In this document: in pieces, positions 2,423-33,248 of the stretch | How the letters are laid out: each line of letters starts with the position of its first letter | How positions within the stretch are numbered: the first letter of the stretch is position 1 | Program-made: the position numbers and the translations under genes | The notes under the pieces: generated by a model | What the model saw: only the letters and a program-made list of their open reading frames with translations | Databases searched by the model: none | Told to the model about the DNA's origin: nothing | IMG/VR virus record: IMGVR_UViG_3300033407_000009 | Location: 6,269-70,268 of that record | Reading direction: 5' to 3' (one strand) | DNA: 64,000 nucleotides | Source: a virus | Taxonomy: Duplodnaviria > Caudoviricetes

Positions 2423-3121
2423 TCACTCCTTCCCGCAAAGGGACTCCAGCCTCTTAAGGATTCTTCGCACCTTGGTCGCCGTCCACAGTTTCGTAGGATC
2501 GTACGCGCCGTTGGTGGGAATGCGTTCGTAATTAAGGGCATCGGCGATTTGCTGGAATCCGCACCCTCCATCGCGTTGTATCCTGATTGCGTCTATCACC
2601 TGCTGCTGCTCTTCGACAGGCACCAGCCTCTTTGAATCGGTCGGATCCAGCGTCCAGCCGTAAGGCACCTGGCCCACTCGTTCGCCTCGCTCGCGCTTCT
2701 CGTGCAGCGCTGCCTTGGTGCGCTCGCTGATCGTCTCTCTTTCCCATTGAGCCACGGTCATCAGCATGTTCAAGACGAGGCGCCCCGAAGCCGTCTTGGT
2801 CGAAACGCAGTCGTCAACCGCCAGCAGCGTCACCGTCTTGCTGAAGTAGCGGGTGATGAGCACCTGCCAATCGGCGAGACTCCGGGTGAGTCGGTCCAGC
2901 TTGGCGACGATAATTCCCTTGGACTTCCGGGAATCGAGTAACCGCATGGCATGCTGGAACCCCGGCCTCTTGAGCGAGCGGCCGCTCCCGCCGATGTCCT
3001 CGATCCAATGCTCGACTTCATGGCCGTACAGCTCGCAGAAGGACTGGATCTTCTTCCGCTGCACTTCCGGGGAGATTTCCTGGATCTCCTTCGATACGCG
3101 GATGTAGCCGATGAGCTTCAT
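2423..3121 (-). CDS. serine recombinase (resolvase/invertase catalytic domain plus short recombinase DNA-binding segment)
   Basis: N-terminal GYIRVS (catalytic Ser), IEDIGGSG, RPGF, AKLDRLTR, helix E ERETISERTKAAL, C-terminal PYGW...W...VRRIL. Confidence 0.9.
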   Translation of the reverse strand: MKLIGYIRVSKEIQEISPEVQRKKIQSFCELYGHEVEHWIEDIGGSGRSLKRPGFQHAMRLLDSRKSKGIIVAKLDRLTRSLADWQVLITRYFSKTVTLLAVDDCVSTKTASGRLVLNMLMTVAQWERETISERTKAALHEKRERGERVGQVPYGWTLDPTDSKRLVPVEEQQQVIDAIRIQRDGGCGFQQIADALNYERIPTNGAYDPTKLWTATKVRRILKRLESLCGKE

Positions 3122-3621
3122 GACAGTGCGGTTTTGTGGAATTTATTCTGGCAGTGGCGACAAATGATCACGGAATCGAGCGGTGCCTCGGATATTGTCG
3201 AATTTCTCGTGCGTCCGCCGCAGTGTGGACAACGTATCGATGCGCTTTGGTAGATCCAGAATCCCGCCAGCCAGAGGATCGGATTGAGGATCACGGCCAA
3301 GATAAATCCGTCGAAACTGCCGCCACTCCCGGCAGCCGAGCCCCACAGCCCCAGCAATGCAGTTATGATTCCCGCCGGCAACATCCAGCCCGAGCGCCCC
3401 CCCGTTGGGAATTGGCCCCCGTGCCCAGCCCAACCACCGCCTGTCCGGTTCCGGCTGGTTCCGGCTGGTTCCGGCTGGTTCTCTCGGACTACCTGGGGTT
3501 TCTCCTGCTCTACCGGATTGCGTGGCGGTTCTGTTGCTGCGAGCGGTTCGGCTGTCGTGTACGCGACAATACATCCGGTTGCGATCGCAGCGATGATGAA
3601 GCAGTAGGCCAGGATGATCAC
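3118..3621 (-). CDS. membrane protein with C-terminal zinc ribbon
   Basis: N-terminal hydrophobic helix, two further TM segments, CPHC...CRHC; overlaps neighbours by ATGA-type coupling. Confidence 0.6.
   Translation of the reverse strand: MIILAYCFIIAAIATGCIVAYTTAEPLAATEPPRNPVEQEKPQVVRENQPEPAGTSRNRTGGGWAGHGGQFPTGGRSGWMLPAGIITALLGLWGSAAGSGGSFDGFILAVILNPILWLAGFWIYQSASIRCPHCGGRTRNSTISEAPLDSVIICRHCQNKFHKTALS
3451..3480. repeat. tandem 10-bp repeat (CCGGCTGGTT)x3 inside the membrane-protein ORF
   Basis: Three exact units, preceded by a partial unit ccggtt at 3445-3450. Confidence 0.9.
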
Positions 3622-4737: not shown

Positions 4738-5607
4738 TCACGCCACGTCCGGCGGCATCTGCCGATTCCTCGTCGAGATCGACCGATCGACGTAATACTT
4801 TCGCATGTCCGGCGTGCGATGTCCAAGGTAATCGCTCACTGCCTCTGGGTGCTCGATGTCCAGTTGCGTCGCCCCCGTCCGGCGAAGCTGCTGCATCGCC
4901 CCGTGCCTGACTCCCGCAATCGCAGTGACGTTGTCCCGCCACCAAACGTACCAGTTGGACTCGTTCGCAAACGGACACTTCAGCACCGGATCCCGCTCCA
5001 GACGCAGCACCAGAGCCAGCGTACGCGGCCGTAGCTGCGGATAGTGGCTGTGGCCGGTCTTGTGCTGCCGGAGCACGACGGCCCCCGTAGGCGTGATCTG
5101 GGAGCGTCTGATCCGCCAGATATCCGACCTTCTAAGTCCGCTGTCATAGACCGCGCAGACCAGCGATTCGCAGTACAGGGCCCGCGGCGTTCCGTCCGGG
5201 AAGTAGCCGACCAGCGCCCGGCAGCGTCGGAGCACGGCCCGCAGCTCGGGAATGGTCCAGGCGGTCGGGCAGGGATCCGGCTTGCGGACACGGCGGACGC
5301 GGCGCGGCCCCTCGACCAGCCCAGCACGGAAGCAGTCTCGCCAGACCATGAGCAAATTCGTCCGGTGGCTGAGGACGGTTCGCTGGGCGTACGTCAATTC
5401 GAGGTGCTGCAGCCAGCGGCTGACCTGGTCGTCTTCCAGATCCAAGAGCTTGGCCGGGCGTCCCAGCCATTCGCCAAAGAGCCGGACAGTGCGCCCCAGC
5501 TGGTATTCGGTAGTGGCTGCCAAGCTGCGATACAGGCTGTACCGCGCGATGTGCGGAAGGATTTCTGACACGGATTTTGCCCCGGTTGTGCCCCGCAAAC
5601 GGTGCAC
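4738..5607 (-). CDS. int: tyrosine recombinase/integrase
   Basis: DSGLRRSDI (Arg I), HKTG (Lys), QQLRRTGAT (HxxR variant), YLGH and YY (catalytic Tyr); upstream core-binding helices. Confidence 0.9.
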   Translation of the reverse strand: MHRLRGTTGAKSVSEILPHIARYSLYRSLAATTEYQLGRTVRLFGEWLGRPAKLLDLEDDQVSRWLQHLELTYAQRTVLSHRTNLLMVWRDCFRAGLVEGPRRVRRVRKPDPCPTAWTIPELRAVLRRCRALVGYFPDGTPRALYCESLVCAVYDSGLRRSDIWRIRRSQITPTGAVVLRQHKTGHSHYPQLRPRTLALVLRLERDPVLKCPFANESNWYVWWRDNVTAIAGVRHGAMQQLRRTGATQLDIEHPEAVSDYLGHRTPDMRKYYVDRSISTRNRQMPPDVA

Positions 5608-5770
5608 TTCCGAGGCTACCAGAGTGGCTATGTTCTTCCGTGTTTCCTCGCGCCTCCGCGGTCCAGTTCTCCAAAATCAGCGTGAATTGTAACGGTCAGC
5701 GAGACCCTGCAGGTGCTACGCCTGACAACCCTTCGGGACTGAGGTGTTCGGGAAAAATGAGCGGATTCTG

Positions 5771-5844
5771 CGGGGTGTGGCTCAGCCTGGTAGAGCGCCT
5801 GCTTCGGGAGCAGGAGGTCGCAAGTTCAAATCTTGTCACCCCGA
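5771..5844 (+). tRNA. trnP: tRNA-Pro(CGG), CCA not encoded
   Basis: Acceptor CGGGGTG/CACCCCG, D arm GCTC/GAGC, anticodon stem CCTGC/GCAGG with loop TTCGGGA, T arm GCAAG-TTCAAAT-CTTGT. Confidence 0.95.
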
Positions 5845-5851
5845 CTGTTTA

Positions 5852-5879
5852 TTGCAAGCCGCAAATCAGCATGTACAAT
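5852..5879 (+). promoter_or_regulatory. sigma70-like promoter of the xis-like gene (probably leaderless)
   Basis: TTGCAA-16bp-TACAAT, ATG 8 nt downstream. Confidence 0.55.
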
Positions 5880-5887
5880 AGCGAGGC

Positions 5888-6106
5888 ATGAGCGAGATGG
5901 CAACAGTTCCTGGCTACTACACGATGGACGAGGCCGCCGATGTCCTGAAGGTTTCGGTGAGCCAGATCTCCCGGTACATCTCGGCCGGACGGATGCCGGC
6001 CATCGACCTTGGCAGGCAGAAACTCATTGAGCAGCACGTGGTTCACACGTTTGAGAAGCCGCCAATCGGGAACCCGCAATTCCGCGAGCGGGCAAAAAAA
6101 TCCTGA
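5888..6106 (+). CDS. excisionase-like HTH (HTH_17/MerR-like) DNA-binding protein
   Basis: YYTMDEAADVLKVSVSQISRYISAGRMPAIDLG pattern; next to integrase and tRNA. Confidence 0.8.
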   Translation: MSEMATVPGYYTMDEAADVLKVSVSQISRYISAGRMPAIDLGRQKLIEQHVVHTFEKPPIGNPQFRERAKKS

Positions 6107-6123
6107 TTCTTTCCGAACTCCTC

Positions 6124-6151
6124 TTGCAAGACGCATTCTGAGTTGCATAAT
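6124..6151 (+). promoter_or_regulatory. early rightward promoter
   Basis: TTGCAA-16bp-CATAAT, same architecture as the promoter at 5852. Confidence 0.6.
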
Positions 6152-6181
6152 GTCCTGGTGTTGACGCACTGGGACTCAAAG

Positions 6182-6211
6182 GCCCGGTGCAAATGAGCAC
6201 CGGGCTTTTTT
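6182..6211 (+). terminator. intrinsic terminator/attenuator just downstream of the early promoter
   Basis: GCCCGGTGC-aaatga-GCACCGGGC followed by TTTTTT. Confidence 0.8.
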
Positions 6212-6301
6212 CGTTTGGTAGCCCGGTGCGACGAAATCGGAGTTCGTCACCGGCCCGGCCGGTGCGAAGGAGTTCACCGGCTGATGTTTCTCAAATGCGT
6301 G

Positions 6302-6450
6302 TCATGGAATCGCGTGGTTTCCTAGGGGTGCTCGCAGCCCCCATGGCGAGAAGTCGCACGGCCCAATGTGCCGCGCGAGCCTCTCGCCGAATCCCACAAA
6401 TGCCGGATGAATGGGCCGGCAAGTTCCGAACCCGCCACGCGATTCCATGA
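6302..6450 (+). ncRNA. putative tracrRNA-like scaffold for the Cas12f-like protein
   Basis: Closed by a perfect 16-bp inverted repeat (6302-6317/6435-6450). Contains GCTCGCAG (6330-6337), complementary to the repeat end CTGCGAG+C, and AGTTCCGAACCC (6422-6433), complementary to repeat GGGTTTGGAACT with one G:U. Confidence 0.65.
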
Positions 6451-6471
6451 TGTGCATTTTTGTTTTTCTTT

Positions 6472-6488
6472 GGTTTGGAACTGCGGAG
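6472..6488 (+). repeat. solo fragment of the CRISPR repeat abutting an RBS
   Basis: GGTTTGGAACTGCG (14 nt identical to the repeat) followed by gagAAAGGA and ATG at 6502. Confidence 0.8.
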
Positions 6489-6501
6489 AAAGGACGAACG
6501 C

Positions 6502-7002
6502 ATGACCACGAAAACCACCTCACAAAAGCACGCTCATCTGAAGTCTCTCGCCAAGAAGAATCGTCTCGATGTCTACGAGATGATCCGCCTGGCCAGCGAC
6601 ATTCTTGCCGACCACGAGTACGTCGATTCGCTGGGAGGCGAGGCGGCGGTGCTCGACATGCTGGCCGCTGATGAATTCGCGCACTTTCCCACGCGCCCAG
6701 CCGTCAAGACGATGGTCGACGCGTATCGCGCCAACCCCGATCGCAAGACCTGGAAAGAATACGCATACAGCACGGAGGCGATGGTCGAGCTGGCCAAGCC
6801 GGAGAAGTTGAAGCCCGAAGGAGATCGCACCGACTGGAAGGCATTGGCGAAGGAACGGGAAGCTCGCGTCGCCGAGTTGGAGGCAGTGGTGGCAGACCTT
6901 CGGGCGCGATGCAGCGAGTTGTCTACTCGCGTCGAGGAATTGCTCGGCGTGAATGGCGAACTGCGTGGACGGATCAAGGCGCGACACGAAATGATCGCGT
7001 GA
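6502..7002 (+). CDS. hypothetical protein with C-terminal coiled coil
   Basis: RBS AAAGGA; heptad-rich C-terminus; first gene of the operon. Confidence 0.65.
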   Translation: MTTKTTSQKHAHLKSLAKKNRLDVYEMIRLASDILADHEYVDSLGGEAAVLDMLAADEFAHFPTRPAVKTMVDAYRANPDRKTWKEYAYSTEAMVELAKPEKLKPEGDRTDWKALAKEREARVAELEAVVADLRARCSELSTRVEELLGVNGELRGRIKARHEMIA

Positions 7003-7017
7003 AAAGGAGGTGCCAAG

Positions 7018-8154
7018 GTGAGCGATGGAATTGCAGTGCTCAAACTGAAGGTTACATCGTCGTCAGTCGACCTAGAGCCGGTCGCCGAGATGTGCCGCAA
7101 GGCTCGCAATATGGCTGTCATTGATTGGCTGCTGCGTCAGAAAGGAATGCCACCATCAGAGAGGCAGTCAAAGCGGCATATCAAGCGCAAAGACAAGGCA
7201 GCTGACGCCCCGACGTCTGAATCGAACAAGATTTATCACGCCATCCGGGACGCCGTACCAGCCTTGTCGGCAGACGTGGCATCATCGCTTTCTCAGGCGG
7301 TGAATAGCTATCTCGGCGGCAAGATGGACTGGCGCGAAGGCAAGAGCGAGGACGGCAAGAGGCCGCGCAGGAGAGATGCCATTGCGGAATTCAGGATGAG
7401 GGCTCCGTTCGCGACGGCCTTGGAAATTCCACTTGCCAACAAGAATGTCACGCTGGCATTCACCGACACGATGACCGTCAGGGTGCGGCGAGTGCTGACC
7501 GGCGAGCCGGATATCGAGTTGGTGTTGTCGACCCGGAACATGCCTGCTGGTATCAAGCTGCTAATCCGAGACGTGATCGACGGTCGGAAGAAGCTGGCCG
7601 ATTCGAAGCTGATCCTTCGCCAGGAAAGCTGGTACGTCCATCTGCCTATCTCATGCCCCGCTGTCCCACTTGATCCCGAGCGCGTGGCAACTCTATCGCC
7701 GATCCAGGGAGATGGCCGCTACGACCGACCGTTCCGTCTGAAGCTGCCCAACCAAAATCGCGAGATCGGAGACGGCTGGTACTTGAAGAGCCAGGCGGAG
7801 CGATTCGTGGGATTGCGAAAGCAGATTGGGTGGCGCTACCGGCAGCGCCAGGGAGCCGGACACGGCCGCAAGAAAGCGGACGCGGCAGTGCGTAAGCGCA
7901 TCAAGCAGTTTGCCGACATTGTGTCGGAGGTCAGGCGGCGCATGATCCGGGACATCGTGTCGTGGTGCGAGCGGCGGCAGTGCGGACTGCTGGTCTATCA
8001 CGAGCCGACGTTGCCCCTCAGGACGAAGTGCTGGTTTGCGGCGAATGGCGTGGATTGGGATTGGACTCGGTTTGTCGGCGACTTGGAAAACTCCTGCAAG
8101 CGAAATGGCATTCGGCTCGACAAGCGGCAGCTGAAGCTAAAGGACGTCGCATGA
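7018..8154 (+). CDS. cas12f: Cas12f/TnpB-family protein, predicted nuclease-dead and C-terminally truncated
   Basis: Collinear with Cas12f1 as recalled: KIYHAIR..LSADVASSLSQAV (REC), SWYVHL..LDPERVATLSP (RuvC-I GIDLG, Asp lost), GAGHGRKK (conserved GHGR), GLLVYHEPT (RuvC-II), WDWTRFVGDLENSCKRNGI. Ends before the Zn finger/RuvC-III. GTG start with AAGGAGG; adjacent CRISPR array. Confidence 0.8.
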   Translation: MSDGIAVLKLKVTSSSVDLEPVAEMCRKARNMAVIDWLLRQKGMPPSERQSKRHIKRKDKAADAPTSESNKIYHAIRDAVPALSADVASSLSQAVNSYLGGKMDWREGKSEDGKRPRRRDAIAEFRMRAPFATALEIPLANKNVTLAFTDTMTVRVRRVLTGEPDIELVLSTRNMPAGIKLLIRDVIDGRKKLADSKLILRQESWYVHLPISCPAVPLDPERVATLSPIQGDGRYDRPFRLKLPNQNREIGDGWYLKSQAERFVGLRKQIGWRYRQRQGAGHGRKKADAAVRKRIKQFADIVSEVRRRMIRDIVSWCERRQCGLLVYHEPTLPLRTKCWFAANGVDWDWTRFVGDLENSCKRNGIRLDKRQLKLKDVA

Positions 8155-8441
8155 AAGCGTTGCCGTGCGCGTGTTGCGCAAGGGAAGTGCGTATCCGGGA
8201 TCGGTCACGATTCTTACGGATGGTGCGCGAGCGACGCCAACCGCTGTGCGAGCAGTGCCGTCGCTACGTAAGAGGGGGGGTCGCTCGCATCGCGCAAGTC
8301 CCTGGAGAGCATGATGATCCGAAGTTGTTCCTGGTCAGGGGTCGTGGAAAACACGCACGCAAGAGGAAGGCTCTCGCAAGTCAGCCTCTGGCGCGTGTCT
8401 GCGCAACGGCTTGCGAGGCCGGAGTCGCAGTGGATGAGTGA
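8151..8441 (+). CDS. small zinc-ribbon protein translationally coupled to the Cas12f-like gene
   Basis: ATGA overlap; CACC...CEQC; stop codon lies inside CRISPR repeat 1. Confidence 0.5.
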   Translation: MKALPCACCAREVRIRDRSRFLRMVRERRQPLCEQCRRYVRGGVARIAQVPGEHDDPKLFLVRGRGKHARKRKALASQPLARVCATACEAGVAVDE

Positions 8442-8647
8442 AGGGTTTGGAACTGCGAGCCGGTCCCACCAGCGATACCGCCAGCCGCGGAATCGTCGCA
8501 GTGGATGAGTGAAGGGTTTGGAACTGCGAGCAAAGGTTGACTGCGATGCGAGAAATCATCTAGTCGCAGTGGATGAGTGAAGGGTTTGGAACTGCGAGCG
8601 CCTCGCAGGATGGCGCAGTGGATGAGTGAAGGGTTTGGAACTGCGAG
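8424..8647 (+). CRISPR. mini CRISPR array: 4 x 36-bp repeats GTCGCAGTGGATGAGTGAAGGGTTTGGAACTGCGAG, spacers of 35, 32 and 13 nt
   Basis: Repeats at 8424-8459, 8495-8530, 8563-8598 and 8612-8647 (last has T2G). Terminal inverted TCGCAGT/ACTGCGA. No cas1/cas2 in the window. Confidence 0.95.
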
Positions 8648-8723
8648 TACGAACTGTGCCCCCAGGTGGGAGTACGTATCCCGCCGAAGCTGGTGGCACG
8701 AGCACAAAAGGAGGCGATTTAAA

Positions 8724-9095
8724 ATGTCCCATGATCATCACAAGGCCGCCGTCAAACACATCCTTCGGCGCGTCGTGGAGTCTGGCGATTTCCGCTGGTA
8801 CATGTTGCATACCGAGAGTTTTTCGTTGTGCCTGGCGGCATATGCAGAGGATCTCGGCATCACGAAGGAAGAGGCGGAGAGGCAACTCGACGTAGCCATG
8901 TCGCGGTACGACCCTAGACAACCCCTCGTCGAAGAGCAGCGGCTACAGATTGAGCGTGCCTCCGAGGTGATATACGAGATGCGAGAGGGTGGCAAGCTCG
9001 ACGAGGAGACATGGAGTGATATCTACAACGCACTTCACAGCGAGCCACCGCCGAAGCTGGTGGCACGAGCGATTGCGAACGAGAAAGGACTCTGA
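8724..9095 (+). CDS. hypothetical protein flanked by a 23-bp direct repeat
   Basis: RBS AAGGAGG; CCGCCGAAGCTGGTGGCACGAGC at 8681-8703 and 9048-9070. Confidence 0.7.
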   Translation: MSHDHHKAAVKHILRRVVESGDFRWYMLHTESFSLCLAAYAEDLGITKEEAERQLDVAMSRYDPRQPLVEEQRLQIERASEVIYEMREGGKLDEETWSDIYNALHSEPPPKLVARAIANEKGL

Positions 9096-9098
9096 CCA

Positions 9099-9293
9099 AT
9101 GCCTATCGAGCAACACACCGTCTACGTCGACCTGCGATTTACCAAATCGTCCATCAAGATCCTCGAAGACTTTGCCATCGTCATTCGACTGCTCGTCGAT
9201 TTGCGCGAGGACATGCCGTGGCGAGCCGACGAGATCGACGAGGCGGGGGAAGCGATGAAGCGATTGGTGGAGCAGTTGCGAGCGGATGGGTGA
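9099..9293 (+). CDS. hypothetical protein
   Basis: In-operon ORF. Confidence 0.55.
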   Translation: MPIEQHTVYVDLRFTKSSIKILEDFAIVIRLLVDLREDMPWRADEIDEAGEAMKRLVEQLRADG

Positions 9294-20536: not shown

Positions 20537-20564
20537 TGCAGCGGATGAGGTTTGGAACTGCGAG
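20536..20564 (+). repeat. solo degenerate CRISPR repeat upstream of the primase
   Basis: GTGCAGCGGATGA-GGTTTGGAACTGCGAG equals the array repeat with an internal ~6-nt deletion; the last 16 nt are identical. Confidence 0.9.
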
Positions 20565-33102: not shown

Positions 33103-33248
33103 TTGACTAAAGTCCAGAAACTTCCCACCATTTCCAGTAGGTGATTTGGAACTGCGAGCAGTAGCGGGTGGTAAGGCCACCCGAACTCACCAGCGTTAGC
33201 GGACACGAAAACCCGCGGCTGCCTTTCATGGCGGCTGGCGGGTTTTTT
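33103..33248 (+). ncRNA. putative stand-alone crRNA-like small RNA (promoter + solo repeat fragment + hairpin + terminator)
   Basis: TTGACT-17bp-CACCAT; TTTGGAACTGCGAGC at 33145-33159; hairpin CGGGTGG/CCACCCG; terminator AACCCGCGGCTGCC...GGCGGCTGGCGGGTTTTTT ending at 33248. Confidence 0.6.

Follow-up and report, generated by a model that had tools for sequence, protein, structure and literature searches.

A putative tracrRNA with two separate anti-repeats for a phage-borne Cas12f-like system predicted to be nuclease-dead

Characterised Cas12f1 nucleases are about 400-530 aa long, larger than the 378-aa effector considered here. The Cas12f1 guide contains a long repeat:anti-repeat stem and a short repeat:anti-repeat pseudoknot of 5-7 bp (PMC11246509). 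In the dCas12f-sigmaE systems of Bacteroidota, which lie in rpoE operons of chromosomes, the guides are chimeric single guide RNAs and no trans-activating CRISPR RNA (tracrRNA) was found, and a separate cluster of dCas12f sits beside CRISPR arrays in bacteria (PMC13472631). We analysed a 64,000-nt stretch of the Caudoviricetes virus record IMGVR_UViG_3300033407_000009 from IMG/VR (positions 6,269 to 70,268 of the record; hereafter the window, numbered from its first letter), in which a structured element lies upstream of a gene for a Cas12f-like protein. Our analysis makes it very likely that 6293-6459 on the plus strand encodes a ~167-nt tracrRNA for a phage-borne, nuclease-dead Cas12f-like system.

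The first-pass annotation of this DNA had described a perfect 16-bp inverted repeat that closes a multi-hairpin domain of ~117 nt. This structure was found, with its perfect core formed by TCATGGAATCGCGTGG (6302-6317) and CCACGCGATTCCATGA (6435-6450). The arms of the inverted repeat cover 6293-6317 and 6435-6459 (25 nt, 88% complementary, spacing 117 nt), and the closing stem, P1, extends to 26 bp, its 5' arm (6293-6318) pairing with its 3' arm (6434-6459), which gives an RNA of ~167 nt. The plus strand of the element folded with a z score of -7.3 against 200 shuffles. Within P1, hairpin H1 (6325-6341) has a 4-bp GGGG/CCCC stem and a 9-nt loop (GGGG-TGCTCGCAG-CCCC) and is followed by a two-part helix, H2 (6344-6389), composed of the outer stem TGGCGAG/CTCGCCG and an inner stem. 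The junction between H2 and H3, GAATCCCACAAA (6390-6401), leads into hairpin H3 (6401-6421), whose 6-bp stem and loop AUGAAUGGG are present in the minimum-free-energy fold. Directly after P1 lies a T-rich tract, TTTTTGTTTTTCTTT (6457-6471), a possible intrinsic termination signal; the consensus terminator scan did not list P1 with this tract because the stem encloses 115 nt. A scan of 5500-9200 against Rfam 15 returned only the tRNA and chance-level matches, and no matching family.

Conservation of the RNA was examined in 17 distinct homologous loci with enough flanking sequence, taken from IMG/VR, JGI metagenomes and public assemblies and referred to below by number. With nhmmer, using the window element and then a seed profile, one copy of the RNA was detected in each of the 17 loci, always on the strand of the effector (E 1e-9 to 1e-22), and a covariance model scored all of them at 87-163 bits. 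The homologous RNAs are 159-215 nt long and each is closed by a long stem of unrelated sequence, which measures 24-33 bp in 16 of the loci and 16 bp in L029. From a plain MAFFT alignment, RNAalifold recovered the closing stem, H1 and the two-part H2, with compensatory changes in 26 of 34 pairs. A model-fitted alignment gave the same 26 of 34 compensatory pairs, and 96.2% of its cells pair, compared with 68% after shuffling and 33-45% after sliding, a percentage that is flattered by the fitting and with which the unfitted MAFFT result agrees in direction. None of 500 shuffles reached any of the covariation measures on the model-fitted alignment. Compensatory changes were present in all 15 counted pairs of P1. 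The H1 stem also covaries (CG in 12 loci and GC in five at one pair; GC in 15, AU in one and UA in one at another), as do both helices of H2 (for example GGCGAG/CTCGCC versus GGTGAG/CTCACC, with CG in 11 loci and UA in six), and a stem of 5-7 bp and differing sequence folds at the position of H3 in most of the 17 loci. The alignment contains 47 G:U cells and four A.C cells; this excess, together with the direction of the anti-repeats described below, indicates that the plus strand is the RNA. A protein-coding interpretation of 6293-6459 was rejected: in six of the 17 homologous RNAs, none of the six frames is free of stops, and the sequence changes are compensatory.

An internal pseudoknot of the scaffold, formed by CCC in the junction (6394-6396) and GGG in the H3 loop (6413-6415), is suggestive only. 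The pairing is CCC:GGG in most loci, UCC:GGA in L001, L005 and L028, GGCC:GGCC in L021 and CCU:AGG in L026, as judged by eye and by script, the automatic check being noisy where H3 folds differently.

Two segments of the element are complementary to the 3' tail of the CRISPR repeat in the window (GGGTTTGGAACTGCGAG, 8443-8459). The short anti-repeat, AR1, is GCTCGCAG (6330-6337), which had been noticed in a hairpin tip as complementary to the repeat end CTGCGAG plus the following C. We located it in the H1 loop, where it can pair, as a pseudoknot, with the last 7-8 nt of the repeat (8453-8460 with the following C; duplex energy -14.3 kcal/mol). The long anti-repeat, AR2 (6421-6433), had been read as GC(A)AGTTCCGAACCC (6419-6433). 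Its core, GTTCCGAACCC (6423-6433), held up: it immediately precedes the 3' arm of P1 and pairs with GGGTTTGGAAC (8443-8453) through one G:U, and the duplex of AR2 with the repeat comprises 11-12 bp at -18.7 to -20.4 kcal/mol. The GCA(A)G at its 5' end did not fit as well, as it competes with GCAG of the H1 loop for the same repeat bases, CTGC. A realistic division of the repeat, judged from complementarity, would be a long duplex of 11 bp (6423-6433) and a short duplex of 7 bp (6331-6337). The duplex energies of the repeat tail with the two anti-repeats sum to -34.7 kcal/mol, compared with -15.0 +/- 3.2 kcal/mol for shuffled tails, and none of 2000 shuffled tails reached the observed value. 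Once the antisense of the repeat copies was set aside, the best partner of the repeat tail anywhere in the 64-kb window was 6412-6441 on the plus strand. By the fold z score, the shuffled tails and this window-wide ranking, both structure and pairing exceed chance. The arrangement agrees with the earlier proposal of two separate repeat:anti-repeat duplexes, and its design matches that of Cas12f tracrRNAs (PMC11246509). We also observed that the 5' end of the repeat, GTCGCAG, is complementary to the repeat's own 3' end, CTGCGA, and resembles the short anti-repeat; the repeat could therefore fold on itself and compete with docking of the tracrRNA.

The repeat tails differ among loci (..GGGTTTGGAACTGCGAG in the window, ..TTGGTTTGGGATTGTGAG in L001, ..GGGAGGGAATTGCGAG in L005 and ..GGTTTGTGTTTGAGAG in L029), and the anti-repeats differ with them. 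All-against-all duplex energies between repeat tails and anti-repeat regions were computed for the 11 loci whose repeat had been identified independently of the RNA. In each of the 11, the AR2 of the same locus was the best partner of the repeat (rank 1 of 11), and the summed energy averaged -29.1 kcal/mol for own pairs compared with -17.5 kcal/mol for cross pairs. The long duplex comprises 10-15 bp in the other loci. AR1 is more conserved than AR2, and its central pair covaries with the repeat as G:C, A:U or U:A; most loci have CTCGCA/TGCGAG as AR1 and repeat, with CTCACA/TGTGAG in L001, GTCAC/GTGAC in L014, CTCAC/GTGAG in L025 and CTCTCA/TGAGAG in L029. Searching with the two anti-repeats alone located guide units in L003, L021 and L028, in which no array had been detected. 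The comparison of homologous loci, which the first-pass annotation had named as a check, was thus positive for the helices and for both anti-repeats with their own repeats: on the aligned sequences, covariation with the repeat is positive for both duplexes.

A more distant locus, L033 (~30% protein identity), carries an equivalent RNA upstream of its own 172-aa gene. This RNA was found by its complementarity to the L033 repeat and was not scored by the covariance model of the window family. It contains an H1 hairpin, GGGGG-ACUCACA-CCCCC, and a segment, GUUUCAUCGCCA, both of which match the locus's own, differing repeat (..TGGCGATGAAATGTGAG), and it ends in a canonical terminator hairpin and U run in place of the closing stem, which supports a discrete RNA that ends just after the long anti-repeat. 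L033 (2990-3215 in NCBI assembly GCA_041631155.1) has the same gene set, with the effector flanked by two arrays; a predicted 83-aa gene that overlies its RNA (2961-3212) is probably spurious.

The gene for the 378-aa protein (7018-8154, plus strand) begins 568 nt after the 3' end of the core stem, in line with the ~570 bp given for the distance to the effector. The protein has no family in Pfam, NCBIfam or PHROGs, and phmmer gave a weak match to OsCas12f (9nzq, E 0.0055), in which the RuvC-I motif GVDMG aligns with TLSPI. An AlphaFold2 model, computed with 26 homologues, reached a predicted local distance difference test score of 89.7. The top Foldseek matches of the model were AsCas12f, SpCas12f1, dCas12f and OsCas12f (E 1e-17 to 1e-15), with TnpB at ~1e-9; matches to the dCas12f structures 9n9c and 9n9m had E values of 1e-16 to 1e-14. 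According to the model, the protein has a Cas12f fold (WED, REC and RuvC core), which bears out the earlier description of a cas12f-like operon. It contains neither an intact RuvC D-E-D triad nor a C-terminal zinc-finger (TNB) domain. The RuvC-I Asp is replaced by Ser227, and no family member has an acidic residue there; the RuvC-II Glu (E329) is retained, and the proteins stop ~50 residues after it, without a zinc finger or RuvC-III. Since the RuvC-I Asp is absent and the protein ends before RuvC-III and the zinc finger, it should not cut DNA.

Conservation of the RNA in all 17 loci, covariation of its helices, co-variation of the anti-repeats with the repeats, the Cas12f1 fold of the neighbouring protein and the published two-duplex design together support the reading of the element as a tracrRNA-like scaffold. 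In this RNA, the long stem P1 would wrap the three hairpins H1-H3 and leave two single-stranded segments free to dock on each repeat's 3' tail. The long anti-repeat (6423-6433), 5' of the P1 3' arm, would form ~11 bp with GGGUUUGGAAC, and the short anti-repeat (6331-6337) in the H1 loop would form ~7 bp with the terminal CUGCGAG, creating a pseudoknot that adjoins the guide. The 378-aa protein would bind this scaffold together with the downstream spacer and, with no working RuvC site, would bind guide-complementary DNA and leave it uncut. From the dead nuclease and the published relatives, the predicted outcome is DNA binding or silencing, which could be directed at host genes, genes of rival phages or the phage's own genes. 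Because the accessory gene follows too closely for a promoter to fit in between, the RNA is most likely transcribed as the 5' part of the accessory-gene/effector transcript, and it may be ended or released at P1 by termination or by RNase III-type cleavage. The RNA boundaries, pairing rules and repeat tail define a single-guide design for the 378-aa effector.

Several observations weigh against this interpretation. The energy of the single-sequence fold leaves the strands undistinguished (z -7.3 vs -8.6). No sigma-70-like promoter was found directly upstream of the element in the window; the nearest lies at 6124-6151, and a terminator-like hairpin (6178-6209) follows this promoter-like site before the element begins. 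Seven guides can be read in the window, from the repeats of the array and the solo repeat tails described below, and none has a convincing match in the 70-kb record, where only chance-level 10-12-mers were found. For spacers 1 and 2, searching IMG/VR with the initial 20 nt gave no exact match. To our knowledge, a closing stem of 26 bp is no feature of characterised Cas12f tracrRNAs. Finally, an additional or alternative role as a cis leader is conceivable, since in 13 of the 17 loci only 21-74 nt separate the RNA from the accessory gene downstream of it.

This neighbourhood bears on the possibility that the element acts chiefly in cis, as a leader of the accessory-gene/effector operon (an attenuator, a terminator or an autoregulatory protein-binding site), and not as a scaffold for guides in trans. 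The accessory gene (6502-7002, plus strand) encodes a conserved 166-aa protein with a C-terminal coiled coil; it has no known family, and its only matches in Pfam, NCBIfam, PHROGs and the ESM Atlas were coiled-coil noise. The RNA is upstream of it in all 17 loci and always directly so, and the short distance leaves no space for a separate promoter; in addition, P1 runs into a T-rich tract in the window, as it does in roughly half of the loci. The other half lack the T run, however, the RNA of L033 terminates before the accessory gene, and a pure leader has no reason to contain two segments that track the CRISPR repeat of their own locus. We therefore regard a mainly cis-acting leader as very improbable, and a leader role and a tracrRNA role are compatible and not exclusive. 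The fixed neighbourhood of RNA and accessory gene suggests co-transcription and a functional tie of the RNA with the 166-aa protein. The effector, the zinc-ribbon gene and the array occur in five orders around the RNA-accessory pair, and in L016 the RNA lies downstream of the effector; the RNA thus keeps its link to the system despite changing gene order. Good sigma-70-like promoters are present 5-40 nt upstream of P1 in L003, L014, L021, L022 and L026.

The mini CRISPR array (8424-8647, plus strand) contains four 36-nt repeats (8424-8459, 8495-8530, 8563-8598 and 8612-8647) separated by spacers of 35, 32 and 13 nt. The shortness of spacer 3 and the variant 5' end of repeat 4 suggest a decaying array. 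Three solo copies of the repeat tail were found on the plus strand outside the array, so that the window contains seven repeat-tail matches (four in the array and three solo) where 0.24 would be expected by chance. The first solo copy is a degenerate tail, GGTTTGGAACTGCGGAG (6472-6488), which lies 12 nt after P1, carries an additional G within its AR1-pairing part and directly precedes the Shine-Dalgarno sequence AAAGGA and the ATG at 6502. The second (20541-20564) is a repeat copy with an internal deletion and the tail AGGTTTGGAACTGCGAG, and the third, TGATTTGGAACTGCGAG (33135-33158), is followed by a hairpin and a terminator-like stem; these two have one and two mismatches to the array tail and lie 12 and 24 kb from the array, respectively, and their guides match nothing elsewhere in the record. 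By duplex energy, all three are able to pair with the RNA through the long and the short duplex (-16.5 and -7.9 kcal/mol for 6472-6488, -18.4 and -12.2 kcal/mol for 20541-20564, and -14.2 and -14.3 kcal/mol for 33135-33158). Units of this kind were also observed in other loci. In some (L024, 5475-5864; L018, 2039-2307; L028, 613-2545; L021, 3970-3993), conservation between units is limited to the final 17-20 nt of the repeat, and guide units are scattered among the operon genes in some loci as well. The tails in L021 and L018 stand just before the effector start codon, so that the guide would be the gene's own 5' end, and in L028 the tail abuts P1 directly.

These tails raise the possibility of a natural single guide resembling an omega-RNA, in which transcription would read through the scaffold into the tail at 6472-6488, with the bases that follow, at the ribosome-binding site and start of the accessory gene, taken as guide. 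Such a complex would act on the operon that encodes it, leaving the array a secondary role. Long-form Cas9 tracrRNA is a precedent for a natural single guide. A preprint on cr-like solo repeats that autoregulate cas genes offers another (bioRxiv 10.1101/2023.03.03.530964). The tail 12 nt after P1, which pairs with both anti-repeats, and the tail positions in L028, L021 and L018 fit such an RNA. Against it, no tail follows the RNA in most loci (L001, L003, L010, L014 and others), the tail in the window is degenerate in the very part that AR1 would bind, and pairing in cis would be geometrically difficult, since the 26-bp P1 helix separates AR2 from the tail. Moreover, the anti-repeats covary with the array repeats even where no tail is adjacent, and we consider a single guide of this type very improbable. 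A decoy RNA anti-CRISPR, which would soak up a host Cas12f-type effector or host CRISPR RNAs and not serve the phage protein, is extremely improbable: phages do carry repeat-like RNA anti-CRISPRs and tracrRNA-using dead Cas9, as reported in PMC11656645 and bioRxiv 10.64898/2026.06.03.729762, but the RNA always accompanies the phage's own effector and repeats and matches those repeats specifically, and a pattern scan of prokaryotic genomes (one per species, 185,579 species), a method of limited sensitivity, gave no relative of the effector.

If the element is a tracrRNA, it could also lie at the centre of the phage's own RNA-guided regulatory circuit, serving the four array units and the solo tails alike, an extension that we put forward tentatively and consider rather unlikely. 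The leader of the accessory-gene/effector operon would supply the tracrRNA. Of the solo tails, one precedes the start of this operon (6472-6488), one precedes the replication genes (20541-20564) and one lies where the late region begins (33135-33158). The guide of a solo unit is by necessity identical to the DNA just downstream, and the complex could thus sit there, provided that the dead Cas12f-like protein accepts the terminal G of the repeat as its target-adjacent motif, which is the case for Fta dCas12f (PMC13472631). A complex at these phage sites could autoregulate the operon that encodes it or set the timing of phage gene expression. In L018, L021 and L028, tails recur immediately ahead of operon genes, which would fit such a circuit.

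The remaining genes and signals around the element are as follows. A 90-aa zinc-ribbon open reading frame with a CxxC...CxxC pattern (8151-8420, plus strand) overlaps the effector stop (ATGA) and is present in 15 of 16 other loci, the L018 sequence ending before the site. The features at 4738-6209 together resemble the integration end of a temperate phage; they include a tRNA-Pro gene (5771-5845), an excisionase-type helix-turn-helix gene (5888-6106), the sigma-70-like promoter and terminator-like hairpin mentioned above, and a weak tyrosine-integrase match on the minus strand (4786-5190; 19.7 bits, below the cut-off). Cas1 and Cas2 were not found in the 70-kb virus record. No transposase was found either, the rve search giving a chance-level match only; the Mu-transpos_C search was uninformative, as its controls gave no match. 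L023 has a Sigma70_r2 gene (9056-9254) 3.8 kb downstream of its effector, and the first-pass annotation had placed a sigma-factor gene ~22 kb away in the window; these sigma genes may deserve note because a partnership of dCas12f with sigmaE has been published.

The effector belongs to a large family. We found 70 relatives of the 378-aa protein at 37-51% identity, all of them unnamed and from metagenomes or viral contigs. An exhaustive profile search recovered 421 representatives at E <= 0.001, with a core clade of ~30 clusters at 50% identity. A second tier of proteins of 380-550 aa has no Pfam family, and in all eight members that were aligned, both the RuvC-I Asp and the C-terminal zinc-finger/RuvC-III part are missing. 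The wider group (~400 representatives, P0084-P0204 among them) is apparently a large unnamed set of dead effectors. Members have so far come only from viral and metagenomic contigs, save for the second-tier locus L033 in an NCBI genome assembly. Searches with tblastn gave no effector match in 50,697 GenBank phages or 72,556 PLSDB plasmids, and the pattern scan over one genome for each of 185,579 species, a method of limited sensitivity, gave no effector relative. We found no paper that describes a phage family with this gene set.

Compared with known systems, the element most resembles in design the type V-F1 Cas12f1 scaffolds (AsCas12f, SpCas12f1, OsCas12f and Un1Cas12f1). As in these, a separate RNA lies beside the effector and the array, a long repeat:anti-repeat duplex forms on the 3' part of the repeat and a short pseudoknotted duplex forms near the guide, the guide is 3' of the repeat, and the partner protein has a Cas12f1 fold. 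In contrast to these, a closing stem of 24-33 bp encloses the scaffold, the RNA has a fixed site directly upstream of an accessory gene, and the partner is a truncated protein, predicted to be nuclease-dead, that is borne by a phage without cas1 or cas2 and accompanied by dispersed solo guide units. The design is thus known, and the closing stem, the site upstream of the accessory gene and the three dispersed solo tails are new.

The dCas12f-sigmaE systems (Hoffmann et al., Nature 2026, PMC13472631) share a C-terminal truncation that removes part of the RuvC site, and they perform RNA-guided DNA binding without cutting, as is expected of the phage effector. Here, in contrast, a tracrRNA and CRISPR-type repeats are kept, the operon has no sigma gene and the carrier is a phage. 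TldR proteins are likewise small, RuvC-dead, RNA-guided DNA binders that are sometimes encoded by prophages and probably act by silencing (bioRxiv 10.1101/2023.11.30.569447; PMC13622181). They descend directly from TnpB and use one fused scaffold-guide RNA, whereas the fold modelled here matches Cas12f1 (E 1e-17) more closely than TnpB (E 1e-9), and the guide consists of two parts, a tracrRNA and repeat-spacer units. A TnpB-type omega-RNA or right-end element RNA (reRNA) was considered as an identity for the element and rejected. Such an RNA has its guide joined directly to a scaffold that runs over the nuclease gene's 3' end and the end of the transposon; here, the RNA is upstream of the accessory gene, the guides come from repeat-spacer units, and neither insertion-sequence ends nor a transposase was seen. 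Cas12k of type V-K transposons is another naturally nuclease-inactive type V effector that uses a tracrRNA (PMC10910872); its guide forms a triple helix and not a short-duplex pseudoknot (PMC11246509). CasMu-V, which lacks RuvC-III, is linked to Mu transposases (PMC10910872). In contrast to both, the record studied here yielded no transposase and looks like a temperate phage.

Judged by its sequences, the family has lost cutting and kept the tracrRNA, which places it between the cutting, dual-RNA CRISPR-Cas12f1 systems on one side and the nuclease-dead, single-guide regulators dCas12f and TldR on the other. A repeat tail right after the scaffold has been proposed as a step toward chimeric single guides (PMC13472631), and the repeat tails that directly follow the scaffold in some of our loci match this step. 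The surprise of the locus lies in the context of the RNA and not in its design.

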